Virus record (IMG/VR): IMGVR_UViG_3300049472_000168
Location: 32,001-96,000 of that record
Direction: 5' to 3' (one strand)
DNA: 64,000 nucleotides
Origin: a virus
Taxonomy: Duplodnaviria; Caudoviricetes
Shown one piece after another: positions 10,856 to 58,112 of this stretch. Below the pieces are notes generated by a model. It did no database searches. It was given only the letters and a program-made list of their open reading frames with translations, and had not been told where the DNA came from. The position numbers were made by a program, and so were the translations under genes. Within the stretch, counting starts at the first letter, position 1. The number at the start of each line of letters is the position of its first letter.

Positions 10856-10856
10856 A

Positions 10857-37300: not shown

Positions 37301-37820
37301 TGCCTATCATGATCCCGGCAGTATCTTTATTGACGAGATCCAGAGCGATCACGCCGTACCTTATGTGAAGCAAATCGAATCCGAGACTCGTAGAGAATAT
37401 CCAGACGATCCAGCAGCAGTTGCTTACGCAGTAGACCGGGCCCAAAAACACTTACCCCTAGAACACCAGAAAAAGATCAACGAAATTATATTCGGTAGTG
37501 TTCATCCCAACAAGGTAGTAGCTGAGGCATTCTTGCAACATCTCAGAAACCTGGGAGATGGCAACACCTCAATCAGAACCCATACCGTGGAGTCTAAACT
37601 GCCGATTTCATTTAGCCACAAAGACGACAGCGACCGACCTACCCCACAGACGGCTCCTGTTCACTTCAAGGATACCTACGAAAAGATGCCCAAGGAATGG
37701 GGCATGAAACCGGCAACCTATGGAGATTCTCCAAGGATCCATAATACCGAGACCGGACCAGAAATGAAAGGCAAGCCGATTCAGGCCGGGGTGGTCCGCA
37801 AGACGGAAGACGTTGAATAG
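31317..37820 (+). CDS. large polyvalent protein: Nudix + ART-like + polyvalent domain + helical repeats + 2 PI3/4K/HipA-like kinases + DEIQSD domain
   Basis: intact Nudix box [24 protein letters not shown]; [18 protein letters not shown]; HNL..PSIA..YFEAKP; DRHDEN..IDN; DRHAGN..IDHG. Confidence 0.8.
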
Positions 37821-37846: not shown

Positions 37847-38047
37847 ATGCAAGTCACAATCACACACCTTCACAACTCTGCGGTCGAAAACTTCAGGGGT
37901 GAGCCAAACCAAATCGGCCAGCAACTGTTGACACGGTTTCCATGGCTCTCCTACGACCCCTATAACCCGAATCACAGCCCCAGTAATTTCCCCGATATCA
38001 TTGCGAGACTAGCGGCTCAGCAGAATATCCATGTCAAAGTGATGTAA
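37847..38047 (+). CDS. small protein homologous to the N-terminal module of 38047-39345
   Basis: both read I.[HN]LH......F.G...........RFPWL. Confidence 0.65.
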   Translation: MQVTITHLHNSAVENFRGEPNQIGQQLLTRFPWLSYDPYNPNHSPSNFPDIIARLAAQQNIHVKVM

Positions 38048-39345: not shown

Positions 39346-39898
39346 CTATCTTGGTGTAGTCTGTCTTCTTTTTGGACGCATGACAAGTCTTCATGCATTT
39401 CTCAGCATGTAGCCTGGCTCTGATCGCGGTTATTTTCTTCCGAGTCGATACGACTTTATGGGCATACCCCGAGACCTCTTTCTTCTGGGCGACAAAACGA
39501 GTCGGCCCCTTGTTATAGGCCGTCAAAGCATGGGTCCACTTCCCAAACCTTTTATGGAGGTCGGCTAGGTATCGGGCCCCGATTCTGATGTTGTGCTCGA
39601 TTCGACCCGAATCGTAGTAACCCATACCAAGGGATGTAGCCACAGCTTTAGCGGTAATAGGATGGAGCTGGAGTAATCCGACGCAGGCCATATGGGATTT
39701 AGCCGAGACAGTATATCCTGATTCTACCTCAACAGTAGCTATCAGGAGGTCCTCTGGCACCCCGGATTCAACACTAGCAGTCGTTATTGCTGTAGCCAAC
39801 CTACGAACTTTACTGGACTCCATCTCAAATCCACCAGACTTGATAACAGCAGACAGGTCATGGGGCGATATCGCCAGGATCAGAGCTGCCCAGATCAT
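39323..39898 (-). CDS. SLT-family lytic transglycosylase
   Basis: VESGY catalytic Glu, GLLQL, NIRIGARYL, AYNKG; hydrophobic N-terminus. Confidence 0.88.
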   Translation of the reverse strand: MIWAALILAISPHDLSAVIKSGGFEMESSKVRRLATAITTASVESGVPEDLLIATVEVESGYTVSAKSHMACVGLLQLHPITAKAVATSLGMGYYDSGRIEHNIRIGARYLADLHKRFGKWTHALTAYNKGPTRFVAQKKEVSGYAHKVVSTRKKITAIRARLHAEKCMKTCHASKKKTDYTKIAKESKAN

Positions 39899-40107
39899 TT
39901 GGACTCCATTCGGCTGGTGTCGAAGGGATTCTTCGGGAAGTATCCTTTGTCATTCCTGCTGACCAGCCAGTCCATGATTGGGATCGCGACATACTTATCA
40001 GCCCGAACCAATGTCGCCCTTTCTTTAGAGAAGGTTTCAAAAATGGCCTCGCCTGTACGTAGACTTACAACAACCCACGACGACGGATTTTTCCAAGGAT
40101 TCGACAT
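39895..40107 (-). CDS. hypothetical early protein (leaderless)
   Basis: TTGACA(40137-42)-N17-TATATT-6 nt-ATG. Confidence 0.65.
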   Translation of the reverse strand: MSNPWKNPSSWVVVSLRTGEAIFETFSKERATLVRADKYVAIPIMDWLVSRNDKGYFPKNPFDTSRMESK

Positions 40108-40121
40108 ACCTCAAATATAAA

Positions 40122-40883
40122 TTATTTGGGTCCAGTTGTCAAGTCTACGGGATCTACTTCTACACAGAATCCTGGATTGAAATGGATATTCTCCCCTTGG
40201 TATCCCGCAGGATTGCACACAACCATAGTCTTTCTAGCGATATAACTGAAGCTGTCGTGAGTATGGCCATGGGCCCAGTATGAGGCCTCCTGGAGTTCAA
40301 CGATATCTCTGATATCATGGAGGAAGTATCGATTCAGAGGATTTCCGAAATATCTCCGATGAATACTTCCGGGATGTGGCAGATGATGGGTGACGACAAA
40401 ATCCCCTTTCTTTACCGTCTCTTTGAGATAGGAGAAAGAGCCCTCAGCGACAGGATAGATCCAGGAGTAGATGTCCTTGATCTGAGAAAAATCGGAGAGA
40501 TTGAGGTCTCCGAATTCAGGATATGGCGCATGGCGAAACCACAGTGTACATCCTACAAACCTGATGCCTCCTAGTGTGACCGTTTCGTTCTCCAAGACAT
40601 GGAGCCAAGGGCATTTATCAGCCACGCCTCGGACCCTCCATAGGACACGGTCTCTGGTCTCGCCATAAAACTCGTGATTGCCCAAGACATAGACTATTTC
40701 TTTGCCTCTGAATCGATTACAGATGTCTTCTAGGATGTCTACCTTTGAACAGATGTCTCCTGCCATCACTAAGACATCAAAAGACCCCTCAGCGATGGAT
40801 TCTAGGACTGCCTTGTAGCTGAAGTAATCCAAAAACTCCAGATGGAGGTCTGATACTACTTTTACTCTCATCGATTTTCCCAT
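40122..40883 (-). CDS. calcineurin-like metallophosphoesterase
   Basis: SDLH, AGD, GNHE, THH, HGHTH. Confidence 0.9.
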   Translation of the reverse strand: MGKSMRVKVVSDLHLEFLDYFSYKAVLESIAEGSFDVLVMAGDICSKVDILEDICNRFRGKEIVYVLGNHEFYGETRDRVLWRVRGVADKCPWLHVLENETVTLGGIRFVGCTLWFRHAPYPEFGDLNLSDFSQIKDIYSWIYPVAEGSFSYLKETVKKGDFVVTHHLPHPGSIHRRYFGNPLNRYFLHDIRDIVELQEASYWAHGHTHDSFSYIARKTMVVCNPAGYQGENIHFNPGFCVEVDPVDLTTGPK

Positions 40884-42253
40884 AGCAATCCCAAGGCTTC
40901 CTGGATACAGACTTCCTGGAACTGAGCCGGAGTCATCTCGGTTCCTTGTACTCTATTTAATAGGGCATCTACGATTTGGGGATCCTGGATGATTCTTGAC
41001 GCAATTTTTAGACGACCATCACGATTCAGGCTGTCCGGCATCTTGAAGACCTTATCGATACGTCCGGGACGGCTCGCATTGGCTGCGGCCAAGGCGGGGT
41101 CTACGTTATCGATGTGGTTTGTTGTGATCACAACAACGATGCCATTGGTTTTTTCGACCCCATCGATACAGTTCAATAAGGCGTCATAGGTCAATCCGTT
41201 GACCAATGACTTTCTCAGATTAAAAACTGCATCGATATCCTCGATCAGGATGATGCAGGGAGACCGAGTCGCCACGATTTTGGACCACGTCGAGGTTAGG
41301 TCTTCGTTGTCCATTGAGGTCAGGTCAGGGATACAAATCGGCAGACCTAAGGACTCCCCAACGGCTCTGACAATTGATGTTTTGCCAGTACCAGGAAGAC
41401 CATGGAGGAGGTATCCACGACGCCAGGGCACCGCTCTGTCTGTATACCAGGATTCATTTGCAGACCAGAAGTCAATATCCCTGATGAACCCAGCTAGGTC
41501 TGGATGGATATACAAGGAATCGGCTTCTTTGTTGGTGAGTGGAGGGGCTCCGATGTCAGATTCCTTCCATCCCAGAGGTTCCCTGCCAAGACTTTCGTCG
41601 TCATCCAGGGAATCTTGTTTAAGCCTTAGCTCTGTCTGCTCCGACCTCTCTTTTGAGGAACCATAAAACCTCCAGACACAGAATCTAGTTGGTTTGTTCT
41701 GTTTCGATGTAATCTGGTTGTAATGAATCGCGGCTTCAGCCATCAAGGTATCGATATCAAGCATCCCTCTCAGATATCTGAGGGCGGGGTCCGTGGTGTT
41801 ATTCTCCTCTTGTCTAGATCTGGCGACTACAACTGGGATCCAGCCTTTGTAGAAGAAGACGCGGTCACCCTCAGATAGGGTCCGGAAGATGACGTGATAT
41901 CTGGCTTTGAGTGATTTGATCCAGACAGGGTCTGCGATGAATCTTTCTGAGCCACCGATAATAGACCTATTACAACTGGCCTTCAAGTAGGTCAGAATCA
42001 TGTCGGCAGCGTGAGAACTCATCGACTTCTTCGGGACCACTGTTTCAGCGATGAAGGCAAAAACGGTCCCAATTGCATTTAAGACCGCCTTCAGAAAGCC
42101 GGAATAGATAAATGCCCAGATCGCCACTCCGATCCCGACACCAAGACCGAGTTCTACATACGAGATATTCAAAACGGAATCCTTTGTGGTGAAATAATGT
42201 CTTCTTTGATCGTACGGAGCGAGGCCATCGCATGGAAGTTGGACCCTGACCAA
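40868..42253 (-). CDS. membrane-anchored BCS1-like AAA+ ATPase (start uncertain)
   Basis: N-terminal TM; WY...PWRRGYLLHGLPGTGKTS, IEDID, LLNCIDG, TTNH, RPGRID. Confidence 0.8.
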   Translation of the reverse strand: MVRVQLPCDGLAPYDQRRHYFTTKDSVLNISYVELGLGVGIGVAIWAFIYSGFLKAVLNAIGTVFAFIAETVVPKKSMSSHAADMILTYLKASCNRSIIGGSERFIADPVWIKSLKARYHVIFRTLSEGDRVFFYKGWIPVVVARSRQEENNTTDPALRYLRGMLDIDTLMAEAAIHYNQITSKQNKPTRFCVWRFYGSSKERSEQTELRLKQDSLDDDESLGREPLGWKESDIGAPPLTNKEADSLYIHPDLAGFIRDIDFWSANESWYTDRAVPWRRGYLLHGLPGTGKTSIVRAVGESLGLPICIPDLTSMDNEDLTSTWSKIVATRSPCIILIEDIDAVFNLRKSLVNGLTYDALLNCIDGVEKTNGIVVVITTNHIDNVDPALAAANASRPGRIDKVFKMPDSLNRDGRLKIASRIIQDPQIVDALLNRVQGTEMTPAQFQEVCIQEALGLLWENR

Positions 42254-42603
42254 GGAATCCTGACCTCCGGCCTGTCCTTCGGCTTGAAAAGCCGGGAGTA
42301 GCCCTCGACTCTTGATAACGCCCTGAAGACATCAAAGGCCGATCTCTTCAGGTCTGAACCCAGCATAGATTGTAGATTAATAACTTGGGATCTGAACTCG
42401 ATATCTGATTTCAGGTAAACCATGACATGCAGTCTAGGACTATTTGGAGTCGAGGACTTCGAGTGCCAGACCACGAGATGATCGATATCGATAATTCCGA
42501 GTTCAGAAGCAAATCTGATCTGAGAATTGAAGGTTTTGATGGCTTCTTCGACCCTAGCTTTATCGGCCTCTAAACTGTAGTTCTGGTATTTTTCATTGGT
42601 CAT
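42169..42603 (-). CDS. hypothetical protein
   Basis: operon ORF. Confidence 0.55.
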   Translation of the reverse strand: MTNEKYQNYSLEADKARVEEAIKTFNSQIRFASELGIIDIDHLVVWHSKSSTPNSPRLHVMVYLKSDIEFRSQVINLQSMLGSDLKRSAFDVFRALSRVEGYSRLFKPKDRPEVRIPWSGSNFHAMASLRTIKEDIISPQRIPF

Positions 42604-42849
42604 TTAATTATTCCTTATTCCTTGCAGAGCGAGCAGTCGGTCGTGATAAAATATCTTTCTGTCAGCTAGGGTGCAGTCTGGATTCTGGAGCAGGACCCAA
42701 CCTTCGGAGGTCTGGACGTAAGTGGAGCCGTCTGAGCTATAGGCGAAAAGCTCGTAAGGTCCCAGAGGCTTAACATTTCTGGTCCAACGCTTGTAGTCCT
42801 CGCCACGGATACAAAAAGGAAATCGGTCCGTGATATGAATAAAACTCAT
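42604..42849 (-). CDS. hypothetical protein
   Basis: operon ORF. Confidence 0.5.
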   Translation of the reverse strand: MSFIHITDRFPFCIRGEDYKRWTRNVKPLGPYELFAYSSDGSTYVQTSEGWVLLQNPDCTLADRKIFYHDRLLALQGIRNN

Positions 42850-42973
42850 CGACGATACCTAGATTTGAATAGTTCCCATCCGGATTCCCAGGAATCAGCT
42901 TTTACCGCAGCATCCACTATATCAATAGTGGTAGGAATCGCAAGAATAATCAGGATGACGAGTCCCAAGGTTT

Positions 42974-43267
42974 TCATGTTTTGATCTCACCAGTTATCCA
43001 GTCAATTCTTGTTTTTTTTGCCGTAGGTATCAATTACAGCATTGACATAAACCAGGCTGGCTTCGGCATAGAGCCTGAGGCCTTCGGCCAAGAGTATTCT
43101 TCCTTCGATCCAGAGCTTATCGCCTTCGATTGCCGAAGCGTTGAAGTCAACCCAGAGTTTTTCGGCTTCGGTCTTGAGTTTATGGCCTTCGCCACAAATC
43201 CTTTTGCTTTCAGCATAGATTTTTTGTATTGGTCCCAGGCCGCTTCAATTTTTGGATGTTTTTCCAT
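42974..43267 (-). pseudogene. doubly frameshifted paralogue of 58937-59110 with EG-x-K-L-W heptad repeats
   Basis: A6 and A8 tracts; setting both to A7 gives one ORF ending VIDTYGKKTRIDWITGEIKT. Confidence 0.65.
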
Positions 43268-43298
43268 TTGTTTAATATATCGGAAATCCAGAACAGAG

Positions 43299-43697
43299 TC
43301 AACTCTCGATCAGACCTAGAGCAGATTTCTTTTTTTCGACTTCTGCCAGATTTTTGATTCCCTTTGGATGTGGGGTCTTGAACCCCCAGAAGATTCCAGT
43401 AAAGCAGCCTAACCCGACCTCTACACAGGCCAGGAGCCATCCTAGATGGCCTCCGAAATAGATCGTAGGTATCGCTGCCAGTAATCCAACAGCAGATGTC
43501 AATCCCAGCTTGAGTTCAACAGATCTCAGATATCTGGGGTAGTCAGGAGAGACATCATTTACACATCTATCGCAGAGGGTCCAAGTATGGGGTTTTTCTG
43601 GATCCAAGGAACGCAGGTCTCTGGCATCGCTGTAGCCACAGATTTCACATCGTATCTTGTAGATCTGGTTCCATGTCTCAATTTTTACGTGTTTCAT
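43299..43697 (-). CDS. zinc-finger plus TM protein
   Basis: CEIC..CDRC then hydrophobic segments. Confidence 0.55.
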   Translation of the reverse strand: MKHVKIETWNQIYKIRCEICGYSDARDLRSLDPEKPHTWTLCDRCVNDVSPDYPRYLRSVELKLGLTSAVGLLAAIPTIYFGGHLGWLLACVEVGLGCFTGIFWGFKTPHPKGIKNLAEVEKKKSALGLIES

Positions 43698-45174
43698 GTT
43701 TCCCTTCCACCCAGGTCAGGTGGGATTTGGCACGAGTGATTCCGACGTATGCAATATTCTGCTCCTCATTCACATCAGGACCCCAGCTATGCTTGAAGGT
43801 GTGTTGAATCAGGTAGACACGGTCCCATTCAAGCCCCTTCGCCTTGTGAACCGAACTCAGAACAACAGCAGGCCTCGGATTGTTGTCGGAGTCCTCGAAC
43901 AATGAGGACAGTCTAGTACCGATTTCAGATGTAGAGGTTGACACCTCGGCAAGGGCTTTCAAGGTCTGGGCCTGGTCCTCGATCAAGTTGATCTTGTCCC
44001 GGTACTGATCCGAATCCGGGTTGCCATGGGTTTTGCTGATCTTATTTGCTGCCCAGGTATCCAGAGCCAGGATATAGCTTTCGATTTCCTTGGCATTGAT
44101 TTTGCCGTGGATGGCCCCAAGAGTCTTCCCGATATCCCGGCCCTCGATGTAGGCTCGCTTGCCGCTACGGATGAACTCCAGACACAGCGTCATCAGAGGG
44201 GCATTTTTGCGACTAACAATGGCCTCTCCAGGCTTTGCTGTGATCGAGACCTTAGAGATATCGAGACTATCTACAGTACCATCCGGAGCCGAATCCGCTG
44301 CGCGATAATCAGGGACCAAGATCTTAGCCAAATTAACCACCGCCTTAGGGCATCGATAGGTCGTGGTCAGAGGAAAGACCTTCGCCTTCAACGTGGCCTT
44401 GAGGCGCTCCATGCCACGGACATCGGCTCCACGGAAGCTGTAGATGGCTTGGCGAGGGTCACCGATCAAAACGATGCGGCCACGGGGCTTGCAGGCCCTC
44501 TGGGCCATGAGAAGCTGCGTCGAATTCATGTCCTGGGCCTCATCGACGACGACCAAGTCAAACCACGGTCGCACCCACTTCATAACAACTGGCAACCAGA
44601 GCTGGTCGTCAAAGCTGATTCGGCCCCGAGGGTCTTGCTTCTTCGAGGCTTCCAGAACCTTGGCAGCAATGACGCAACACATCTCGGTGGTCCAGCCTTC
44701 GCGTTCTGCGTTTCCTTCTGGTTCCAATCCACGAGCATTGGCCATGTTGACCAGGTCCTGGTATGACGCAAAGGCGCAGGTGTTCTTTGCGAAGCTGACG
44801 ATATCCTTGATGACAACCGTTGGCTTCGTATTGAAGCGACGGAAGCCATCGGATTTAAGGGCCTCCTCGATTCGGTCAAAATCGATGGAGTCATCAGGTT
44901 TGGCATTCTTCCAGTTCTGGAGAACAAAGCGGTAGCCGAGACCGTTCAGAGACAGAACCTGAGTCTTGGGGTCTTTGATCTTGAGCTTGGCTTCATTTAC
45001 ATTTTTTCGGTTGAATGCGAGGTAGACCTTTTTCTCTTCAGGAGCCAGGCCCATACCTTCTTTTACGGTAGTCGTCTTGCCGGTACCAGCACGGGCCTCG
45101 ACCATGAAATGGGAGGTTCCTGTTCGGAATTCCTCGAAAATGGCGTTTTGCTCATCAGACCACATCGTTTTCAT
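43678..45174 (-). CDS. UvrD/Rep-like SF1 helicase
   Basis: ARAGTGKT, VDEAQD, GDPRQAIYSFRGAD, YRCP, HKAKGLEW, YVGITRAK. Confidence 0.93.
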   Translation of the reverse strand: MKTMWSDEQNAIFEEFRTGTSHFMVEARAGTGKTTTVKEGMGLAPEEKKVYLAFNRKNVNEAKLKIKDPKTQVLSLNGLGYRFVLQNWKNAKPDDSIDFDRIEEALKSDGFRRFNTKPTVVIKDIVSFAKNTCAFASYQDLVNMANARGLEPEGNAEREGWTTEMCCVIAAKVLEASKKQDPRGRISFDDQLWLPVVMKWVRPWFDLVVVDEAQDMNSTQLLMAQRACKPRGRIVLIGDPRQAIYSFRGADVRGMERLKATLKAKVFPLTTTYRCPKAVVNLAKILVPDYRAADSAPDGTVDSLDISKVSITAKPGEAIVSRKNAPLMTLCLEFIRSGKRAYIEGRDIGKTLGAIHGKINAKEIESYILALDTWAANKISKTHGNPDSDQYRDKINLIEDQAQTLKALAEVSTSTSEIGTRLSSLFEDSDNNPRPAVVLSSVHKAKGLEWDRVYLIQHTFKHSWGPDVNEEQNIAYVGITRAKSHLTWVEGKHETRKN

Positions 45175-47821: not shown

Positions 47822-48232
47822 TCAGGAGACTTTTTCACTTTGTCGGGCTTCCGCTTTGATCTGGGTGTCAACCATCCATTCGCCGCAGTACTTCACGATG
47901 TCTGCCATGGCTTCAATCATAAGTGCTCTTGAAGCAAAGACATCGGTTTCGACAACCTTGCCCATGACGTTGTCACAGACAGCCCTAATGCTGGATGCCT
48001 GTCTATTGGCTTCTTTTAGGACCCAGCTCGGATTCTTTCCGATGACGCAACAGATCACAGATGCCGTATCTCGTTGGAATTCCTCTAGTCTGTAGTCTAT
48101 CTTTTCGTTCAGCGCAATCATGATTTCGAGGTAATCCTTTTTAAACCCCTCCTGTTTTGAGGCCGGAATTTCTGCTGCCAGTCGTTCGGCATTGGCTTCA
48201 AGGATTTTGACTTTTTCTGGGTCTAGTGGCAT
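47822..48232 (-). CDS. hypothetical protein
   Basis: AGGAG SD; TTGACA(48273-78)-N18-TATGTT promoter. Confidence 0.65.
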   Translation of the reverse strand: MPLDPEKVKILEANAERLAAEIPASKQEGFKKDYLEIMIALNEKIDYRLEEFQRDTASVICCVIGKNPSWVLKEANRQASSIRAVCDNVMGKVVETDVFASRALMIEAMADIVKYCGEWMVDTQIKAEARQSEKVS

Positions 48233-48306
48233 CTGGCTCCTGTTATAGAACATACCAAATAATCGCGTAGTGTGTCAAGTGGTGTACGGCTTGATGAGGA
48301 GGGCGA

Positions 48307-48543
48307 TCATTTCCAGACGCCTCCGGTTGTGAGTTCAATTTTGTCGTCTGTCTCCCTGAAGAATCCAATATTGGGGTCATTTGTATAGGTCGGGAGGTTT
48401 GGATCCAGATTAGCAGGTTCTACATACCAGAAGACCGGTCCCCAAGGGGTTGGAATGTACTTAGGAGCGGGGGTAGGAGCAGGGGCGACTTTGCCCGCAA
48501 CAAAAACCGCAGCCAGCCGACTGAAAAGACTTCGACGATTCAT
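48307..48543 (-). CDS. small protein with twin-arginine-like N-terminus
   Basis: MNRRSLFSRLAAVFVA. Confidence 0.55.
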   Translation of the reverse strand: MNRRSLFSRLAAVFVAGKVAPAPTPAPKYIPTPWGPVFWYVEPANLDPNLPTYTNDPNIGFFRETDDKIELTTGGVWK

Positions 48544-48782
48544 AGCATTTCCTCCGGCAATATCGCCCTTGCCACCGCAACCAGCGTATCGATAGCTTTA
48601 TCGAGAGTAGCGGAATTCTCCCTACATCTGTAGATATTGCAATCGGCCTTGGTTTTCTTGTACTGCATGGCTCGTGATAAAAGTTCGTAACGTACAGCTT
48701 CGCGTTCAGAACGAGGTCTTTTCAGGATTTCTCTGAATTCATCGACTCCGTATTCTTCTTGTTCTGGTGTTAACTGATCCAT
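48540..48782 (-). CDS. hypothetical protein
   Basis: operon ORF. Confidence 0.55.
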   Translation of the reverse strand: MDQLTPEQEEYGVDEFREILKRPRSEREAVRYELLSRAMQYKKTKADCNIYRCRENSATLDKAIDTLVAVARAILPEEML

Positions 48783-48784
48783 GG

Positions 48785-49987
48785 CTACCCCTGATAATCT
48801 CTAATTGCCTTGCCGATTGGGAGATAAGGAATATTGTCGGAGGTCATCCTCTTGTAGGTGACTGTAAGCTGCTTGCCCTTCCACAGTTCTGGCTTCTCCA
48901 GAAGCTCCCTGCGATATGCATAGGTACCTTTTAGTCTTGGATAGAACTCTTTGCCTTCTGAGGTCACACAAGTAAAGGTCCCTGCGGTTCCAGCATCTTT
49001 GCCTCTGCCCTCGTTGACACCAACGATCTTGAATTCGTCATCCTGGAACGGCTTCATCTTTTGGAGGTTCTTCGACCTCTTGTCACATTCGTAGGGAGCC
49101 GCAGAATTACGGGCCATGGCCCCTTCGTATTCTTGGTCCAAAAAGTTGTCATAGAATTTCACTAGAGTTTCTAGGTCCTGGACTCTGTGAGTTCTGACGA
49201 GCTGGACAATGTCGTCGTCGCTGGGCAGGATGTGAGTTGAGGTGCGACGAGGAATAATATCAATCAAGGCCGCAAATCTTGACTTAAATGGAGTCGTCTC
49301 AGTTACGACGTGGTTCTCAGTCGAGATGTCGATACAGTCATAGACGTGGTACTGCATCACCTTGTAAAGCCCCTCGGCATCAGGAGCATCCTTACGTAGA
49401 ATCGAGATCAAATCCTCGAAGCTATTTCGGTAGTCGTGGTTGTAGAGTTCGCCATCCAGGACAACTATGCCACCAGGAAATCTGGCTTCCAGCTCCGCAA
49501 CGATATGAGGAACCGTTTTGATCGGCTTCCTCGTCCTGGACCACAACGTACATTTGCCGTTGTCAATAACAGCGATGCACCTCATACCATCTAACTTGGG
49601 CTGGACGTAACAAGGAAACTCGATGCGCTTCTCCAGTTCGTCATCCTTAGGGAACGACTTGTTCGGAGCCAGCATGGGGGCGTAGCCGCCCAGAATCACG
49701 GTATCATCGACTTTGTCCGATACCGCGTCATCGATATTCTCGACGTAGCCTTTCTTCTTCTGCTTTAACCAGCGGGATTGTGCTTCGTTGGCGGCTTGTT
49801 CTTCTGCTGATGTCGAATTCTTTTTATTTAGGTTTTTGCCTGTAGTAATGGTTTCCTTGAGATACTGCTTCTTGCCGTCGATGTGACCGAATTCGACGTG
49901 AATCGTGGAGTCTGTGACCCAAATCTTCCACTCCTGAATAGCCGAGGTCTGGGTTTTTTGGAATAGAACAGGGAATGACAATTTCAT
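48785..49987 (-). CDS. ATP-dependent DNA ligase with WGR-like N-terminus
   Basis: QPKLDGMR motif I, DGELY, EGAMAR, KMK, C-terminal OB fold. Confidence 0.92.
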   Translation of the reverse strand: MKLSFPVLFQKTQTSAIQEWKIWVTDSTIHVEFGHIDGKKQYLKETITTGKNLNKKNSTSAEEQAANEAQSRWLKQKKKGYVENIDDAVSDKVDDTVILGGYAPMLAPNKSFPKDDELEKRIEFPCYVQPKLDGMRCIAVIDNGKCTLWSRTRKPIKTVPHIVAELEARFPGGIVVLDGELYNHDYRNSFEDLISILRKDAPDAEGLYKVMQYHVYDCIDISTENHVVTETTPFKSRFAALIDIIPRRTSTHILPSDDDIVQLVRTHRVQDLETLVKFYDNFLDQEYEGAMARNSAAPYECDKRSKNLQKMKPFQDDEFKIVGVNEGRGKDAGTAGTFTCVTSEGKEFYPRLKGTYAYRRELLEKPELWKGKQLTVTYKRMTSDNIPYLPIGKAIRDYQG

Positions 49988-50265
49988 CAGCAATTACCTT
50001 TGCATTGGACAGAATTGAAACCGACATAGGCCGGTCCTTTACACTTCGGACATGTATGTGGAAACTCAGGATCGACTGTGGATGTCGGACTCATATCGAC
50101 ATCAATCTTGATGAATTTAATAGGGGTAGGGAGGGATATCTTGTACCAACCCTTCTCCATAGCATCGATGAGGTCCTGCATTGTGTTGATTGCCATTTTA
50201 GGTCTTTCTAAGAATTTGCCACCACTGTAGGTATATATTTTGTATGGGACGCCAGAGATTAGCAT
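49987..50265 (-). CDS. hypothetical protein with C-terminal Zn ribbon
   Basis: CPKC..C..C; start uncertain. Confidence 0.5.
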   Translation of the reverse strand: MLISGVPYKIYTYSGGKFLERPKMAINTMQDLIDAMEKGWYKISLPTPIKFIKIDVDMSPTSTVDPEFPHTCPKCKGPAYVGFNSVQCKGNC

Positions 50266-50274
50266 TGTGGGTCT

Positions 50275-50877
50275 TTATTCCCGAAAGGATACGTCTACAA
50301 CAAAGATACAACGGATATCAACAGGCAGCTCAAGATACCATTCATCAAATCTGTCCAGTAGGGCTGTGGCTTCTAGATCTCCGAGTGATGTCGGAATGCT
50401 TATCCTAAGTTCCCTGCCGCCTTGTACGATCTCAAGCTTGGGTCTTTCCTGTAATTCAAACAACGAGTAAATCCGTTTTGCAGCTTCAAAAAGGGCGTCC
50501 AGTAGTTTGTCGTTCGGGAAAAACCCCCACAAATCCCTGATATCGGATGGGGCGATGTTGTAGAAGTACCAAAACTCATGGAATTGACGTAAGCTAAGGG
50601 CTAAGGTACCGTTTGTAGTCAGGGTTACGGGATCTTTGGTGATGAACCCTCCGTCATAATTAGGAACGATATACTCTTCTTTAGGAGGACTCAGGCACCC
50701 AATGGACGCCACAAGAGTCGCCTCGTATTCATCAGGAGACATAAAATCAACCCAAGGCCTTTTGAATTTTTCCTTGACCAACTCTGCTCCTTGCCTGATG
50801 TGTTCCTCGGTTAGAGCGACTCCCTCCATTGGCTTGGGGTCTGTTGTCGTCCTGTCTATTCCTGAAAAATCATCCAT
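50275..50877 (-). CDS. hypothetical protein
   Basis: operon ORF. Confidence 0.5.
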   Translation of the reverse strand: MDDFSGIDRTTTDPKPMEGVALTEEHIRQGAELVKEKFKRPWVDFMSPDEYEATLVASIGCLSPPKEEYIVPNYDGGFITKDPVTLTTNGTLALSLRQFHEFWYFYNIAPSDIRDLWGFFPNDKLLDALFEAAKRIYSLFELQERPKLEIVQGGRELRISIPTSLGDLEATALLDRFDEWYLELPVDIRCIFVVDVSFRE

Positions 50878-51608
50878 GTTTCACCTGCTCGAATGTTACT
50901 TCACCGGTCCTCAGATCCTCGATATAAGCTGTTAACCTGCCGCCGAAGCAGCATCCTGTATCGATACCAAAGGTGTTGTTTGAAATAACAGGATTCTCCA
51001 GGCTACCGACGTTGTGGCCATAGACCACTCTACCAATGTTATTGGTTTCTGTCCAGAATACTGAGTCCTTTGGCTGCTCGAAATCCTCTCCCAAGCTGGC
51101 AGGAACCCAGACTCCATTCTTCTGTTTTAGATATCTGTTATGGACTAGGTTGATGACTTTTTGATCCAGAGGGTCCTTGGGCAGAAACCCGGCATGAGTA
51201 ATCCAGGTGCCGTTGACATTTATTACGCCGTGGCCGTTGCCCATCCATTCGATGTGTTCTGGAGTCAGGCCAAAATGCATCCTATTAAATTCGGTCCCTC
51301 TCCAAAAAACACCAGTTCTACGGTATCTGACATGCTTCATGTCGTGATTCCCGACGCAGAACAACGTGCTTCCTGGAGGTCTATTAGACTCCATTTCCAT
51401 CAGCAAACTGATGACTTCGGCAGATTTTGGACCCCTATCGACGTAGTCTCCTGCAAAAACGACCAAATCAGTATCAGCCACTACGAGATTGGTGATGAGA
51501 TCGATGGTTTCGATTAAGCCAGCCATGGATATCCCCTATCACTATAAGTCTGGAGTATTCCTGGGCCCCTACATATTTGACTACTGGTGGTGAATTAAAA
51601 GAGGTCAA
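50870..51608 (-). pseudogene. PPP/ApaH-like metallophosphoesterase with a +1 frameshift near 51519
   Basis: RLIVIGDIHG lies in another frame (from TTG 51608) than GDYVDRG, GNHD, HAG, GH, DTG. Confidence 0.75.
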
Positions 51609-51611
51609 TCA

Positions 51612-51959
51612 TTATTCTCCACGAAGATAGTCGTCATAGCTGTAGTCTTCTTCGAGGTACTGATGACGGTCTACAGCTTCCATCTGGGTCTTGAAATCTT
51701 CAAGATTGCTGGAGTCCAGGCTCCAGCGGGTTTCATCTAGGGCTGAGACAACCTCTCTCTTGAAATTTTCGGCGTAGAGGTCGGCAAAACTAGGCCCGAA
51801 CTCGGCGGTCAGGATAGACCTAGAGAGGTGTTCCGGCTCGGACCCGTTGTAGCCCCAATCAAAAGGCTCCCCGCGCTCCATAGGTGTCAAAGGCCTCCCA
51901 TTGATGGTTACGACTGCTTTGCCGTAGATCCTGCGACCGGTATAAGTATTCGATGACAT
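51612..51959 (-). CDS. hypothetical protein (FDWGYNGS motif), leaderless
   Basis: TTGACT(51989-94)-N17-TATTTA-6 nt-ATG. Confidence 0.65.
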   Translation of the reverse strand: MSSNTYTGRRIYGKAVVTINGRPLTPMERGEPFDWGYNGSEPEHLSRSILTAEFGPSFADLYAENFKREVVSALDETRWSLDSSNLEDFKTQMEAVDRHQYLEEDYSYDDYLRGE

Positions 51960-52015: not shown

Positions 52016-52651
52016 ATGGATCTAAGAAAAATCATTGTATATGCGCTGCTAGACCCCAGAGATAGCACGATGCGTTATATTGGTAAGACCAAGCAGAGAC
52101 TCAAGACAAGGATATGTCGGCACCAAAGAGACGCTCTGATGAAAATTGATGATAGGTGGGAGGATACAACCCATCGGGCCAATTGGCTTAGAACTATCTA
52201 TAAGGAAGATCTGACTCCTGAGGTGTTAGAGCTTGAGACAGTAGAAGAACAAGAAGGGAACGAATCAGAAAGATTTTGGATCTCTTATTTTAGAGGTATT
52301 GGATGTGACCTCACCAACTCTACAGAGGGAGGTGATGGCGGTATCATCAGTCGGGTTTCGCTTGTGTCGGATGAGGAAATATGTGCTCTCTATTCTTCAG
52401 GGGTGAAAAACAGTAAGGCTATCGCCAAGAATTTGCATACCTGCGCAAAAAGAGTAGTGAAGGTCCTTCGGAGGAACAATATATCCCTCTGTACGATTGG
52501 AAAGAGGATCAAAGATGATCTAGGGAATGAGTTCCGTTCCATAACTGAAGCGTCTGTTAAATAATATGGAGTTTCGATGGGTGCTGTAAGTAATGTATTG
52601 AGAGGTTATAATAAGACCTCTGCTGGGAGAAAGTTTAGCTATGTCGATTAA
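52016..52651 (+). pseudogene. GIY-YIG homing endonuclease with an in-frame TAA (52562) inside the C-terminal NUMOD1-like HTH
   Basis: VYAL..YIGKT..N.TEGGDG; FRSITEASVK*YGVSMGAVSNVLRGYNKTSAGRKFSY. Confidence 0.75.
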
Positions 52652-55600
52652 TATTTTTCTTTCTTTCGATGGCGATCACATTGGTAGGATGGTTGGTCGG
52701 GCCAGACTTTCCGACGAAGTCGAAGAGGTAAGAAGAATAGATCATGCGATCAAAATGGGTAATGAGGTGTTTAGATCGTGGGCTGTGACTAGCGGTGGCT
52801 CTATTACTGAAATTAGTGGCGATGAGGGTACCATCGAGATCCCCGCCGATGTCTTGGAAGACCTCCCCAGCATCTGCCATACCTATAAAACAGCCGTTGG
52901 AGCCACGGTAAGCGTTGGGTTAGGTAAGACCCTTTCTGAATCCGCAAAAAGTCTTATGGCGGCAAAGCTCAGGGGTGGTTCCAGGGCTGTATTCTATGGC
53001 CCCGATGTCGAAGAGACCATATCTGCCCGCAAGGAGCCGACAGAGGCCGAGAAGATCCAAGACGAATACCTCAACAAAGCTGAAGGTTCGGCTCAGGTCA
53101 GTCCCGATGCCATCGGAGGGTCCCCACACGAATCCTCGGAGCATACCGAAGCCGAAACCGCTAGAGCCGTTGCCGAAGGTGCCCCTCCCCAACAGGACTA
53201 TGAGACTAGTTTTCATAGTGCCGCGACGCATCAGGAAACCAAGGACAGGGCCAGGAATCTACAGAATTCAGAGGACATGTCCCAACTCAAGGCCAAGGTC
53301 GCAGCTTCCCTGGAGTCTTTGCGTCAGCAGTTGCCGGTTCTGAACCAGTTGAAATCGGCTTACCCCGACAGCTACAAGGCGGTTACTTCCTTGGTTCAGT
53401 CCGTCATCGGGCTGTCCAGAGGAATCCAGGCTGCTGATGAGCAGCTAGAAAACGTCCAGAAATCGGAGAGACCCCGATTTGCCGATATCAAGCCTAAAAA
53501 AAAAGAGGAAAACGAGTTCGACTATAGCCACCTGTTGCCGCCTCAGATCCAATCGCAGGGTTACAAGATTAGAGTAAAAATGAAGTCGTCTGTAACCGGT
53601 AATCCCGGAGATAGCTTTCTCTCCAGTACCGTAATTTCTCCTAGCGGTTCGCCCAAGGGCAGAGTATCGGGATATTTCTATAACGGAGCCGTAGAGCCTC
53701 ATTCAGGACTAGATCTTGACCTCCAAGGTAAAGGTATAGGAAAGGCCTTATACGAGGCCCTCTATGCCCATGCAAAAAACAAGCATGGTGTCAATACGGT
53801 AAGGGGTGAAGGTGCCAGCAAATCAGCCCATCATGTCCATTTGTCCTTGGCCAAGAAGTATGGATTCAAGATAAAATCACAGGACCCCGATGAAGATGTG
53901 GGTCCAGATGTTCCCTATCATTACCAGATCAAATCAGAACTCCAAAAAACAGAGGACATCGGTCTTCATGACGTAGGTCCAGAGGAATTTTCTGCTGCTA
54001 TAGCTCCTAGCTTCCGGGGCCATGGAGCCGAAAATCTGACACAGCATCCGGTGGAGCATTATAGAAAAGCGAAAAAGCTCGTAATCAGTTCAGATGGTCA
54101 TTCCGGATACGCCATATTCGACGACGGCGAATTCGGCAACCTATTCTCCAGGGTCAAAGGCAGAGGCGACGCCTTAGTTTCCCATGCCTCTGCAAACCAC
54201 CCAGGAGCCCATCTCAATGTCCTGGATAGCCCACACCTAGTCGGACTCTATTCTAGACATGGGGCAGTTGAAACCCACAGGGAACCGAACTGGACCCCAG
54301 GTGGGCCCGATGTCGTCCATATGAAGTTTGGTAACTTGCAGAAAGCGATTCCAAAGAAACACTGGGTAGAGAATACCGGAGGCTTCGGGAATCCTCTTCG
54401 GATTCCAGTATCCAGCAATCCAGACCGCAAGGCCTGGGACCAGGAGTTCCTTCGTGGTGTAGAAGATAGGTTTCCTGGTGTAAAGGAACTCAGGGATATC
54501 GATATCGACAAAATCGTCGGAGGAAATAGCAGAGGGGTAGCGAATAAAGACAGATTCCAGCTTTATTCCAAAATAGCGGGGTCCGATAGACTTCCTCCTG
54601 TGGTTGTCAGGCCTCTAGGAGATAAGTACGAACTCCTCGACGGCACCCACAGAACTGAAGCCGCTAAAGCAAAAAAGCTGAAGACGATTCCTGGTGTCGT
54701 GATGAAGGCCGATTTGGAGAAGGCCTTTGATTTAAAGCCTATAGGCTCCCCGGAACCCGGAGAGCATCGAGGCTACAAATTTAATGCCCACGACTATACC
54801 CATCTCCTTCCTCAAGGAATGGAAGGACATAAGCTCAAGGTAACATCCTACGAGCCTACCGATGAAGACCCCGGAATCATCAGGGCTTCACTACTAAATC
54901 ACAACGATGAAGAAGTAGGCCGCGTCTCTGGATTCAAATCCAGCAAAGGTGATAACGCCATAGAACCCCACAGTTTCGTTGATGAAAAATACAGAGGCAA
55001 AGGATTTGGGAAGCTATTATACAGCATTCTCTATTCTCATGCTCTCGGAGAGGGTTACAATAGGGTATCGGGAGACTACCACAGTGAGTCTGCTCATAGG
55101 GTTCATGATGCTTTAGCCAGACAGCATGGTTTTACGATTGAAGGTGCCGAAAAAAGGAAACTTCAGGTCTCGAAGCCCTATTCCCCGTATAGCTACGATC
55201 TGGGTAAGGAACAACTCTCAGATACCGAGGATGAAGTAGGTCACGTTCCTGTATTTAGTTCAACAGATCCCTTGGACGAGCTTCATCCAGTATTTTTTCA
55301 CCACAACGATTTAGTCAAAGGTGCGATGCAGAGGCTGTATCCTATAGATCCTAGAAAGATCAAGCAACAAGAGATCGGCACCAGATGGGATAAATTCAAC
55401 AACAAGGTACTCCCTGCCACTACGGAGGATTTCATTGGTCAACGAATGTCGGGACATGATAGTGCCCGCGAAGCACTAGCAGAACAAGGCAACTCGCCAG
55501 CTTTGGAGCCCGCCAGACAGAGGGCGCTTCACCGACTTCACGGACTGACCCAGGTCAGAAAAAACAGCAACGGGAAAAGAGAGTTTTTGTTGCATCGCGG

Positions 55601-56819
55601 CTACGGACCCGACGAAGATTCTATAGCAAATGGGGTCAAAAATAAATACAGCAATTCGACCTCTTCCTCTTCTTGGACTCCTCATCTAGAGGTAGCAAAT
55701 AAATTCTCGGACTGGAGTAAAGGTGGAGGCGGAGTGTCGGCATGGATACCAGAAGACTCCATTCGTTTCTCTATGCCTCAATTAGGCGGAATCGACAACA
55801 AAGACCAGGTTCCGAATCAGACAAAATATGAGCACGAAATAATCGTGGCTCCAGGGGAATATGACAAACATATCGTTGTAAGAAAAGCAGAAGATCTCGA
55901 AAAGGCCAGCTTCAAGGACATCAAGTCCCAGAACTCAGCGATTAAACCTGAGGCACCCGATGGTCCGAGGTCGCAGTTCTTCGATTATACCCATCTCCTG
56001 CCTCAAGCCTACCAGAAAACACACAGCCTGGAAGTCTTCCATTCCAAAACGGCCCCTTCCTACATGAAGAGGGGTCGTCTTATCGCGGTTCTTCGCAGCA
56101 AGTCGGATCCCGGATATCCAGCCCATGGAGTTGTTGTCCCCAGTCTCAAAGACCCCGAACTAGGCTACGTCGATGTCGCCGGAAGCTACTCCAATGGAGA
56201 CGGCAACGGAGTCGAAGGTCTAGTCCATGGCATCCTGGGCGAAGAGGTTCCTCGCCAAAAAACGATGACTCCCCACAGCTTCCTTAAGGAAAAACACCAC
56301 GGCAAAGGTGTAGGTAAGGCCATGTACGAAGCCCTCTATGCCAGAGCTATGGCTCAAGGCATCGATCAGATCCACGGCGGCGTCCATAGTCCTCAAGCCT
56401 CTGCCGTTCACCAGTCATTGGCCCAGAAGTACGGATTCAAGGTCGAAGGCGGGAAAAAAGTCCCGTTCGGTCATGATAGATATAAATATACTATCAAAGA
56501 CGAGATCAAAGACTTCCATCTCGAACCCCATCCCGACAACGACCCGGTCTTTGTCGTAAAGTCTGAACTCGCCCCAGAACAATCCGTACCGGAATCCAGT
56601 GACCTCGATAAGATCGCTTTGGATTCGGCTCATGCCAAGAAGAATCTCAAGCTACCTCCTGGAACTCTCCTCAACGGAAAGCTGAAGGTCCAGCATAACG
56701 ACGGGACCAAAGGATGGAAGGGCGTCAGGGCAGGCCTCATCGCTTCCCAAGAATCACACACACCTTTGCTAGGCAGCAATTCTCATCCGGTATCGTCTAG
56801 AGAGCCTAGCTCGAAATAA
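52641..56819 (+). CDS. large polyvalent protein: mCpol-like nucleotide cyclase + 4 GNAT + ParB/Srx-like + ADP-ribosyltransferase-like
   Basis: FDGDHIG..SGDEG..TVSVGLG..AAKLRG; QGKGIG, KGRG, RGKGFG, HGKGVG; LLDGTHR; LHRG..SSWT..EHE. Confidence 0.8.
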   Translation: MSINIFLSFDGDHIGRMVGRARLSDEVEEVRRIDHAIKMGNEVFRSWAVTSGGSITEISGDEGTIEIPADVLEDLPSICHTYKTAVGATVSVGLGKTLSESAKSLMAAKLRGGSRAVFYGPDVEETISARKEPTEAEKIQDEYLNKAEGSAQVSPDAIGGSPHESSEHTEAETARAVAEGAPPQQDYETSFHSAATHQETKDRARNLQNSEDMSQLKAKVAASLESLRQQLPVLNQLKSAYPDSYKAVTSLVQSVIGLSRGIQAADEQLENVQKSERPRFADIKPKKKEENEFDYSHLLPPQIQSQGYKIRVKMKSSVTGNPGDSFLSSTVISPSGSPKGRVSGYFYNGAVEPHSGLDLDLQGKGIGKALYEALYAHAKNKHGVNTVRGEGASKSAHHVHLSLAKKYGFKIKSQDPDEDVGPDVPYHYQIKSELQKTEDIGLHDVGPEEFSAAIAPSFRGHGAENLTQHPVEHYRKAKKLVISSDGHSGYAIFDDGEFGNLFSRVKGRGDALVSHASANHPGAHLNVLDSPHLVGLYSRHGAVETHREPNWTPGGPDVVHMKFGNLQKAIPKKHWVENTGGFGNPLRIPVSSNPDRKAWDQEFLRGVEDRFPGVKELRDIDIDKIVGGNSRGVANKDRFQLYSKIAGSDRLPPVVVRPLGDKYELLDGTHRTEAAKAKKLKTIPGVVMKADLEKAFDLKPIGSPEPGEHRGYKFNAHDYTHLLPQGMEGHKLKVTSYEPTDEDPGIIRASLLNHNDEEVGRVSGFKSSKGDNAIEPHSFVDEKYRGKGFGKLLYSILYSHALGEGYNRVSGDYHSESAHRVHDALARQHGFTIEGAEKRKLQVSKPYSPYSYDLGKEQLSDTEDEVGHVPVFSSTDPLDELHPVFFHHNDLVKGAMQRLYPIDPRKIKQQEIGTRWDKFNNKVLPATTEDFIGQRMSGHDSAREALAEQGNSPALEPARQRALHRLHGLTQVRKNSNGKREFLLHRGYGPDEDSIANGVKNKYSNSTSSSSWTPHLEVANKFSDWSKGGGGVSAWIPEDSIRFSMPQLGGIDNKDQVPNQTKYEHEIIVAPGEYDKHIVVRKAEDLEKASFKDIKSQNSAIKPEAPDGPRSQFFDYTHLLPQAYQKTHSLEVFHSKTAPSYMKRGRLIAVLRSKSDPGYPAHGVVVPSLKDPELGYVDVAGSYSNGDGNGVEGLVHGILGEEVPRQKTMTPHSFLKEKHHGKGVGKAMYEALYARAMAQGIDQIHGGVHSPQASAVHQSLAQKYGFKVEGGKKVPFGHDRYKYTIKDEIKDFHLEPHPDNDPVFVVKSELAPEQSVPESSDLDKIALDSAHAKKNLKLPPGTLLNGKLKVQHNDGTKGWKGVRAGLIASQESHTPLLGSNSHPVSSREPSSK

Positions 56820-56878: not shown

Positions 56879-57247
56879 TTAGCTCTCATGCGAAAGAGAC
56901 CTAGCACAGACCTTGGCCAGATCCAGCCCCAATGCTGTCGGCACGAATCTGGCCACGATACCACTGTTGGGATCAAAATGGGGATCCAGAAAGCCTTTAC
57001 TTAGGGCCTCAGCCAAACTTTCTCTGGTCATAACCAAGATCTTGACCCCTTCGTAGTTCTTGCAATTTGGATACAGAACTTGCACGACAACATATCCCGT
57101 GTCTCGGTCTCCGAACCAGACGGTACCAATGATCTTAAAGTCATAGGGATCCGGATTCCCAGAAATAACCGGAGTCGTATCCGACTCAGACCTACTGCTA
57201 GACATAATTCCCATTCCCATGTTGTTTTTTCCTCGCGCCTCCGACAA
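56879..57247 (-). CDS. hypothetical protein (true start probably near 57220)
   Basis: GNPDP..YPNCKNYEGVKILV..LDPHF..ARFVPT. Confidence 0.6.
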   Translation of the reverse strand: MSEARGKNNMGMGIMSSSRSESDTTPVISGNPDPYDFKIIGTVWFGDRDTGYVVVQVLYPNCKNYEGVKILVMTRESLAEALSKGFLDPHFDPNSGIVARFVPTALGLDLAKVCARSLSHES

Positions 57248-57309
57248 GGGTCGAACTTGTAACCCCCGGCTTAGAAGGCCGGTGCTCTATCCAGTTGAGC
57301 TACGGAAGC
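57236..57309 (-). tRNA. tRNA-Arg(TCT)
   Basis: cloverleaf, CCGGC-CT TCT AA-GCCGG, TTCGA loop; no encoded CCA. Confidence 0.93.
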
Positions 57310-57777
57310 AAAGGCCGGTCAAAGAATCGATTCCAACCGGCCCGTATATACTGCATCGTCGCAGAGTGGAATGATTCCGCACCCACTAACGGTCCTAAAC
57401 ACCAGAGGCTGGGGTGGTGTCTAGATCTAATTATCCCAACATTCATAAGTGGCTCCTAGCCGACTACCTTCAGGAGGGACATCGGCATCAGACCTCTTAG
57501 GTGGAGAAGGTGGACTTGCACCACAACTTTAGAGAATTCCAAGAGACCTCTAATATTCTCCCAGAAAACAATCCAATCCAGACATGGGTCGATTCGGTTG
57601 ATTGCTCCGAACAATGGATATCTGTTGAGGTAATCGGTCTCATCAGGATGTCCGCCATGTCTCCGGCACTCTGCCGGTTCATCTCCATATGATCGGATTA
57701 CGTTCACTCTATCCGATCTACTCTTCTCCCTGAACGCTATGACAGGAACTGAATCCTGACTACCTAGAAGAGTTTTG

Positions 57778-57848
57778 AGCCCGCTAGAGAAATCGAACCT
57801 CTGTCACCTGTTTACAAAACAGGGGCTCTGCCATTGAGCTAAGCGGGC
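57778..57848 (-). tRNA. tRNA-Thr(TGT)
   Basis: GCCCGCT/AGCGGGC acceptor stem, CCTGT-TT TGT AA-ACAGG. Confidence 0.92.
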
Positions 57849-57854
57849 TTATAG

Positions 57855-57927
57855 AGCTACTGGAGCGGATCGAACGCCCTCCCTAGACATTACCAATGTC
57901 TTGTTCACCCATATGAACTTCAGTAGC
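57855..57927 (-). tRNA. tRNA-Thr(GGT)
   Basis: GCTACTG/CAGTAGC acceptor stem, AGACA-TT GGT AA-TGTCT. Confidence 0.88.
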
Positions 57928-57959
57928 AAATTACGCCTTATATTTTTGAACACGATTTG

Positions 57960-58031
57960 AGCACCGTGCGAGATTTGAACTCGCGTGAGACTGCTTGGAA
58001 GGCAGCCGCCTGGCCTCTAGGCTAACGGTGC
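57960..58031 (-). tRNA. tRNA-Gly(TCC)
   Basis: GCACCGT/ACGGTGC acceptor stem, GCTGC-CT TCC AA-GCAGT. Confidence 0.9.
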
Positions 58032-58039
58032 AATTTTTG

Positions 58040-58112
58040 TTGGGCCAGCGAGCTATGCTCTCGCCACCTCTCGCTTATCAAGCGAGTGCTCTTCTGAATG
58101 AGCTATGGCCCA
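58040..58112 (-). tRNA. tRNA-Ile(GAT) with atypical T-loop
   Basis: TGGGCCA/TGGCCCA, CTCGC-TT GAT AA-GCGAG, T-arm GCGAG-AGCATAG-CTCGC. Confidence 0.75.

Follow-up and report, generated by a model that had tools for sequence, protein, structure and literature searches.

The minimal CRISPR polymerase (mCpol) was reportedly first described by Burroughs et al. in 2015. All studies of it so far, two Nature papers of 2025 and follow-ups of 2026, have treated it as an enzyme of bacterial defence. In KpOptS, an mCpol synthase of the Panoptes defence system, residues D6 and D57 hold the metals and are required for activity, and S30 contacts the adenine (PMC12657218). Panoptes is triggered by the sponge protein Acb2 (Panoptes papers, e.g., PMC12657218), and 295 mCpol loci have been surveyed (PMC12657230). 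A second precedent is offered by the polyvalent proteins, among which injected proteins with GGDEF and RelA/SpoT domains have been described, and whose processing, injection and interference with host nucleotide signals have been predicted (Iyer et al., 2017, PMC5512222). The main text of that study does not count mCpol among the polyvalent-protein domains and mentions the CRISPR polymerase for CRISPR systems only (PMC5512222). Here, an mCpol-type domain is described at the head of a phage protein encoded by the open reading frame (ORF) 52641–56819 (+), 1392 amino acids (aa) long, in a window of 64,000 nucleotides (positions 32,001–96,000 of IMG/VR virus record IMGVR_UViG_3300049472_000168; coordinates are those of the window unless a locus is named). 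The favoured reading, to which we give a probability of about 0.5, is that this ORF of an Mx1-like myophage encodes a late, polyvalent protein, headed by an mCpol-type palm synthase, which would be packaged, cut, delivered into the host and there disrupt its signalling. The domain belongs to a large phage protein family that was previously without annotation.

The mCpol-type domain and its phage family

The region 52641–53081 (+) encodes the first 147 residues of the protein and is free of stop codons. Its translation opens MSINIFLSFDGDHIG and holds FDGDHIG, ISGDEG, TVSVGLG and AAKLRG, with LNKA at its end, which is exactly the motif layout from which the original prediction had read an mCpol palm domain heading a polyprotein. 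The placement at the head of a long multi-domain protein was borne out by the 1392-aa frame and its Pfam domains, and an active-site motif of SGDE instead of GGDE was indeed found, within SGDEG. The identity of the domain was upheld by the Pfam profile search, the predicted fold and the catalytic residues described below. The ATG at 52641 is the predicted true start, because relatives open with M-x-x-[FVY]-[VIL]-x-[FW]-D-G-D (residues 1–10) and a GGGAG lies about 10 nucleotides upstream. In the public gene call (P0003, 1376 aa), Met17 is taken as the start, which omits the region 52641–52688 and thereby the first beta strand with D10 and D12. Automated annotation may thus be hiding the catalytic strand of the phage mCpol family.

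Pfam family PF18182 (mCpol) matches residues 6–119 over the whole profile (1–114 of 114), scoring 39.2 bits for the domain alone (E 1e-9) and 34.1 bits for the whole protein against a curated cut-off of 26.4 bits; a full-length match at 39.2 bits lies far beyond chance. An AlphaFold2 (AF2) model of the domain, built from 30 relatives, has a predicted local distance difference test score (pLDDT) of 92.9. With this fold, Foldseek ranks 1–6 are all occupied by OptS/mCpol chains (9pd0, 9mnr and 9nwn; E 3.6e-7 to 1e-5, TMt up to 0.84), which superpose with a root-mean-square deviation of 1.9 Å over 118 columns at 22% identity, and GGDEF domains rank after them at E about 1e-4. For P0038, a minimal member of the family, VIA-align on its AF2 model gave Z 17.4 for 9mnr and Z 13.6 for the best GGDEF domain. 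A phmmer search against solved structures returned solely two mCpol/OptS sequences (E about 0.1), in an alignment that is ungapped across the catalytic residues and pairs D10 and D61 with KpOptS D6 and D57. The domain has no match to Pfam PF00990 (GGDEF) at E ≤ 1, PADLOC gives a weak CARF_HEPN_mCpol match (16 bits), and no PHROG family covers it. Since profile, solved-structure alignment, predicted fold and an independent aligner agree, the assignment of residues 1–147 to the mCpol fold is solid, and we regard it as near certain.

The predicted metal-binding set, D10/D12 and G60-D61-E62, is intact in the window copy. Among 153 cluster representatives of the family, which are otherwise 29–62% identical to the window domain, D10 is kept in 148, D12 in 151, G60 in 153, D61 in 152 and E62 in 151. 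That D12, G60, D61 and E62 are each retained in 151 or more of the 153 sequences speaks for selection on catalysis. To judge from these residues, the domain is apparently a catalytically competent nucleotidyl cyclase or oligomerase, and the first 147 residues of the window protein are probably active. The family consensus at the catalytic hairpin is GGDEG, and the SGDEG of the window copy is rare. At the base-contact positions, the phmmer alignment places D34 and K38 of the window copy against S30 and N34 of KpOptS; the position matching S30 holds Ser in 94 of the 153 relatives and Asp in the window copy. Two members, in L022 and L023 (locus 10001–10441), carry K-T-D or S-A-D in place of D-G-D at the first Asp motif together with a hairpin of NGDEG, and their mCpol domains may be weakened copies.

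To assess the extent of the family, 1.84 billion cluster representatives (clusters at 50% identity) were scanned exhaustively with HMMER; 801 of them are relatives at E ≤ 1e-3, and 626 remain at E ≤ 1e-10. By comparison with the 295 loci surveyed in PMC12657230, 801 clusters make this phage clade large. PF18182 was matched in all 69 family members scanned. In nearly all of the best 150 relatives the domain starts within the first 40 residues, in proteins of 135–1376 aa. Relatives are carried by 28 IMG/VR contigs, many of them 160–180 kb long. Among phage records, megablast of the ORF against 50,697 entries gave no match, and tblastn with the domain found Myxococcus phage Mx1 as the sole match, where the homologue WNM70340.1 is annotated as a hypothetical protein. 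The viral fold database BFVD holds a single close match, an uncharacterised protein. A scan of genome contigs with a single protein as query returned no host or prophage copies.

Chassis, cargo and late-block context

Members of the family are built on one chassis: the mCpol domain at the N-terminus, then a helical module, and a small beta tail at the C-terminus, with exchangeable cargo between module and tail. In the window protein this arrangement is as follows:

52641–53081 (+), aa 1–147: mCpol-type palm domain (PF18182, AF2, Foldseek), the last helices ending in the junction motif Y-L-N-K-A
53082–53465 (+), aa 148–275: disordered linker and conserved helical module (phmmer, 140 of about 150 members)
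53466–53951 (+), aa 276–437: GNAT-like cargo domain 1 (phrog_13728 acetyltransferase at aa 359–427; 26 family members)
53952–54347 (+), aa 438–569: cargo domain, function unassigned (phrog_2563, unknown function, E 1.7e-21, aa 447–562)
54348–54725 (+), aa 570–695: ParB/Srx-like cargo domain (phrog_3264 ParB-like, E 3.3e-7, aa 616–695; 21 members)
54726–55322 (+), aa 696–894: GNAT-like cargo domain 2 (best Acetyltransf_1 stretch at aa 752–822)
55323–55907 (+), aa 895–1089: cargo domain, function unassigned, common to two members, P0092 and P0096
55908–56564 (+), aa 1090–1308: GNAT-like cargo domain 3 (Acetyltransf_10 at aa 1207–1268; phrog_1249 acetyltransferase at aa 1214–1272)
56565–56819 (+), aa 1309–1392 and stop codon: conserved C-terminal beta tail (112 members, tail profile)

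The helical module was traced by phmmer with that segment, and the tail has the consensus L-P-x-G-[ST] ... K-V-x-H-x-D-G ... W ... G ... S-S-R-x-P. In P0038, as modelled by AF2, disordered linkers connect three folded modules (predicted TM-score 0.42): beside the mCpol domain, the helical module forms long helices (pLDDT about 90) with disordered linkers on either side, and the tail consists of short strands (pLDDT 70–84). VIA-align on P0038 identified no fold for the helical module or the tail, its list being filled by mCpol matches. A hidden Markov model (HMM) of the tail was run on this genome, 28 loci and a 50-kb part of Mx1. It matched 24 frames: 23 mCpol ORFs and, in L004, the tail half of an mCpol gene that is split. 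In L004, mCpol head and tail lie in the overlapping frames 1262–1846 and 1776–2621 (L004:1262–2621), an arrangement that a frameshift, a split gene or an error in sequencing could explain. When the tail was searched against a database, under the limits of a word index, two matches were returned.

Among the cargo, GNAT domains occur in about 26 members, ParB-like domains in 21 and DUF5661 in 9 of 69, and ART-PolyVal (Pfam, E 4e-21) was found in one. In the window protein, Pfam Acetyltransf_1, _7 and _10 together mark three stretches, with a whole-protein Acetyltransf_1 score of 53.4 bits, and ParB_N scores 21.9 bits, under its cut-off of 26.3. Scanned alone, residues 438–569 have no Pfam match. 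No Pfam family, ART included, matches residues 895–1089 alone or the shared segment in P0092 and P0096, and an Atlas search with residues 895–1089 was uninformative.

The domain borders of the window protein are marked by the motif L-x-K-[AST], or L-x-K-[AGST] in its wider form (aa 144, 272, 434, 566, 692, 891, 1086 and 1305). Across the family this junction motif was observed 335 times against 128 ± 12 in shuffled sequences, control motifs staying near expectation, and in 133 of 153 members one copy stands right after the mCpol domain. The motif is common, too, in the scaffold-like protein, the N-terminus of the portal, the capsid protein (at aa 10) and the remaining giants. This pattern fits cutting by a head protease.

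The virus record comprises 138,265 bp with 48.9% G+C, is estimated to be 84% complete and is syntenic with Mx1, with terminase, portal, capsid and sheath genes present. The gene order common to both phages runs from helicase, sigma factor and phosphoesterase through terminase, portal, a MuF-like protein, a 1240-aa giant, the capsid protein, a giant with a NUDIX domain and a kinase to three small genes, the mCpol protein, a 283-aa gene and the neck and sheath genes. By this order, the mCpol gene lies in the conserved late block, between the head-associated giant proteins and the neck/tail-sheath genes. Its immediate neighbours are a 182-aa ORF with no assigned function upstream and small opposite-strand ORFs and tRNA genes downstream, and a scan for promoters and terminators around it gave signals at or below chance level. 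Two opposite-strand blocks, 39323–45174 (−) and 47822–51959 (−), interrupt the late block, which is contiguous in Mx1, and contain, besides small ORFs, a helicase, a DNA ligase and a NinI-like phosphatase. Just past the mCpol polyprotein, at 57235–58112 (−), lie five tRNA genes (Arg-tct, Thr-tgt, Thr-ggt, Gly-tcc and Ile-gat); Mx1 also has a large tRNA cluster, located after its sheath gene.

Two other giants in the window (31317–37820 and 20327–24049) are likewise polyvalent as far as their predicted domains indicate. The ORF 31317–37820 encodes 2167 aa with a NUDIX domain (aa 3–103), a PBECR5 nuclease (aa 328–467), a PI3/PI4-kinase-like region (aa 1375–1424) and 15 [LIVM]-x-K-[AGST] motifs. 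The next ORF, 38047–39345, has a weak kinase-like match. The 1240-aa giant encoded by 20327–24049 contains the following feature:

23534–23899 (+), aa 1070–1191 of the giant: canonical GGDEF domain (PF00990, 62.4 bits; TIGR00254, 46.3 bits)

Both motifs of this domain, D-F-K-A-I-N-D and G-G-D-E-F, are intact, and it is the predicted second palm-type cyclase of the phage. The Mx1 counterpart of the giant is annotated as a "putative prohead protease", and the GGDEF domain of Mx1 is encoded by a separate "nucleotide cyclase" gene. Searches of Pfam, PHROG and PDB sequences gave no match to the N-terminal part of the 1240-aa giant. Outside the window, the same genome has a 154-aa ORF (L034:11938–12402, −) that is 37% identical to the first ~160 residues of the Mx1 "prohead protease", so that the N-terminal module of the giant is present twice.

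Proposed mechanism and competing explanations

Under the favoured reading, the capsid would be loaded with the mCpol protein, the head protease would cut the protein at its Lys motifs, and the products would be ejected into the cell along with the DNA. The released mCpol would dimerise, as OptS must for its shared active site, possibly with the assistance of the helical module, and would make a cyclic di- or oligonucleotide from nucleoside triphosphates. This product would then disturb the nucleotide second-messenger signalling of the host, whether immune or physiological, alongside the conserved phage GGDEF cyclase.

The original prediction had proposed a narrower role, as a counter to Panoptes, and had connected it with an Acb2/Tad1-like sponge placed at 11380–11597. 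The hairpin domain of such a sponge is real:

11403–11567 (+), aa 205–259 of the ORF 10791–11597: Acb2/Tad1-hairpin domain (Pfam PF24729, 37.3 bits, cut-off 27)

The ORF is also matched by PDB 9ptq, "Acb2 homolog 43" (E 6.5e-6). The proposed gene start did not stand, as there is no in-frame ATG at 11380; the hairpin is the C-terminal domain of the ORF, behind a ~180-aa N-terminal domain (phrog_38666), and a stand-alone gene of 72 aa does not exist here. The hairpin of the relative G005 sits within an open frame of 71 aa (L038). The Mx1 ORF at the position of the sponge was considered as a counterpart and is unrelated to the sponge ORF. Ten related records, all picked for carrying the mCpol gene and seven of them complete, were searched for both partner domains. 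The hairpin was found in one of the ten, in a search that recovers the window's own copy (40.6 bits), and the GGDEF domain in eight, including all seven complete records. The expected co-occurrence of mCpol and sponge across related phages thus failed to appear, and with the sponge in 1/10 and GGDEF in 8/10 records, mCpol is best described as a clade-wide late gene independent of the sponge. Its more consistent pairing with GGDEF indicates a broader role.

Late-block position and junction motifs favour packaging, and on the strength of these gene-level features the scales tip slightly towards the mCpol protein being carried in the particle. Several observations weigh against the delivery of an active mCpol. 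The junction motif occurs at 6 sites within the window protein against about 2.7 expected at the genome-wide rate, a modest excess; the idea that the tail is a shared packaging signal was rejected, as the tail HMM matched mCpol ORFs only in the sequences searched; the head protease is placed in the 1240-aa giant by the Mx1 annotation and an Atlas lead at 0.82 only, with no HMM match; and virion proteomics for this phage or Mx1 was not found in the literature searched. On the enzymatic side, the window copy has S59 where 140 of 153 relatives have G, and K38, which matches KpOptS N34, where relatives mostly have D, E or N. The NCBIfam mCpol model NF033576 scores 27.4 bits (E 4.2e-6), under its cut-off of 40, which marks a divergent mCpol member and fits the "hypothetical protein" label of the Mx1 homologue. 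The rare S59 and K38, together with the first Asp missing in L022 and L023, would suit a palm domain that acts mainly as a structural or assembly module, oligomerising or anchoring the cargo in the head and giving no nucleotide signal. Its invariable place at the extreme N-terminus, with helical module and tail, also resembles the constant virion-anchoring parts of polyvalent proteins. Such a role is nevertheless unlikely, as the near-universal retention of D12, G60, D61 and E62, all four intact here, is hard to explain without catalysis. We infer packaging from the genes, and this leaves room for an active enzyme that serves the phage itself, through its own regulation or the exclusion of rival phages (superinfection exclusion, lysis timing, cargo control), or for a late enzyme that stays unpackaged in the cytoplasm. 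The cytoplasmic variant is disfavoured by the late-block position and the junction motifs. A regulatory one is disfavoured by the lack of a known cyclic-nucleotide receptor domain in the genome: PilZ was not found in the 84% complete sequence, with a working control, and SAVED and the cyclic-dinucleotide-recognition domain of Cap15 (2TM-beta) gave no match in searches whose positive controls were also silent. These phage-serving roles together seem to us somewhat less improbable than the structural one, and still a minority view.

The Panoptes proposal holds that the delivered mCpol makes the decoy nucleotide (2',3'-c-di-AMP, 3',2'-cGAMP or cA3), so that the guard effector stays off while the sponge mops up immune signals. 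It agrees with the fold and catalytic residues, which are those of OptS, with the Ser that many relatives hold at the position of KpOptS S30, and with the presence in this genome of an Acb2/Tad1 hairpin, given that Acb2 triggers Panoptes. The counter-move is considered in none of the Panoptes papers found, and neither these papers nor a 2026 review mention phage-borne mCpol. The genomic data speak against it. Five of the seven complete genomes are without a sponge, the steadier partner being the GGDEF domain, and D34 and K38 stand at the base-contact positions; with the sponge so rarely co-occurring and these residues differing from OptS, the proposed link found no support. An identity of ~22% to OptS and a phmmer E of 0.1 also indicate that there was no recent capture of a host Panoptes synthase, and no effector gene lies beside mCpol at the locus. 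We therefore consider this explanation very improbable, and the reading of the ORF as a delivered, signalling-disrupting polyvalent protein is preferred.

Significance and comparison with known systems

The present data place on the phage side an mCpol clade that is large, conserved and apparently catalytic, sits within multi-enzyme late proteins and has a GGDEF cyclase as its partner. If active and delivered, these enzymes would mean that phages also make immune-type nucleotides of their own, beyond destroying them or soaking them up, and would offer a testable route to new signal molecules and a new counter-defence logic. It is a long shot that Mx1-like phages deliver a working mCpol and that its product serves as a guard-type nucleotide or antagonises immune effectors. 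If it were so, it would go a step past sponges and phosphodiesterases, by keeping Panoptes-like "loss-of-signal" guards silent or jamming the receptors of CBASS, in which anti-phage signalling relies on cyclic oligonucleotides, and of type III CRISPR, and the 801-cluster clade would be a reservoir of new signal nucleotides exceeding the 295 loci of PMC12657230. The question is accessible at the bench, as Mx1 is cultivable and carries the homologue WNM70340.1. The family also extends the polyvalent-protein concept by a defined chassis-plus-cargo design, and exposes a systematic annotation gap, with a late-called gene start and an NCBIfam score under the cut-off.

The phage mCpol and the GGDEF cyclases have related palm folds (Foldseek E about 1e-4; VIA-align Z 12–13.6) and the G-D-E catalytic hairpin in common. 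The mCpol domain is shorter and is without the D-x-F-K-x-x-N-D nucleotide-binding motif of the phage's true GGDEF domain. A comparison can be drawn with phage T4, in which Alt and the internal proteins are packaged in the head, where the head protease trims them at a short motif, and are injected with the DNA to act on the host at once. The logic proposed for the mCpol protein would be the same. To our knowledge, the T4 proteins have no sequence relation to it, and their motif and targeting signal differ.

Like the polyvalent proteins (Iyer et al., 2017, PMC5512222), the mCpol protein combines several unrelated enzyme domains in one polypeptide encoded among late/virion genes: mCpol, three GNAT, one ParB-like and two unassigned domains. 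Of the polyvalent hallmarks, ART-PolyVal is present in one relative and not in the window protein, and PBECR5 in the neighbouring 2167-aa giant. The mCpol family differs from the proteins of PMC5512222 in its own fixed chassis, and the window protein is without MuF, zincin peptidase or PBECR. We regard the mCpol protein as a variant of the polyvalent proteins, a known kind, headed by a domain hitherto met in bacterial defence only.

With the Panoptes OptS/mCpol synthases (9mnr, 9pd0, 9nwn; PMC12657218, PMC12657230, PMC13577387), the phage domain shares the minimal palm fold, equally spaced metal aspartates and a size of about 120–145 residues. The GGDEG of the phage family is closer to GGDEF and Cas10, the motif being "nearly absent" from OptS according to the OptS paper. 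OptS is a stand-alone bacterial protein encoded in a two-gene operon with a 2TM-beta or CARF-TM effector, whereas the phage domain heads a late protein of 1392 aa. Panoptes is encoded by the bacterial host, typically near CBASS, whereas the phage mCpol sits on a 138-kb virus record.

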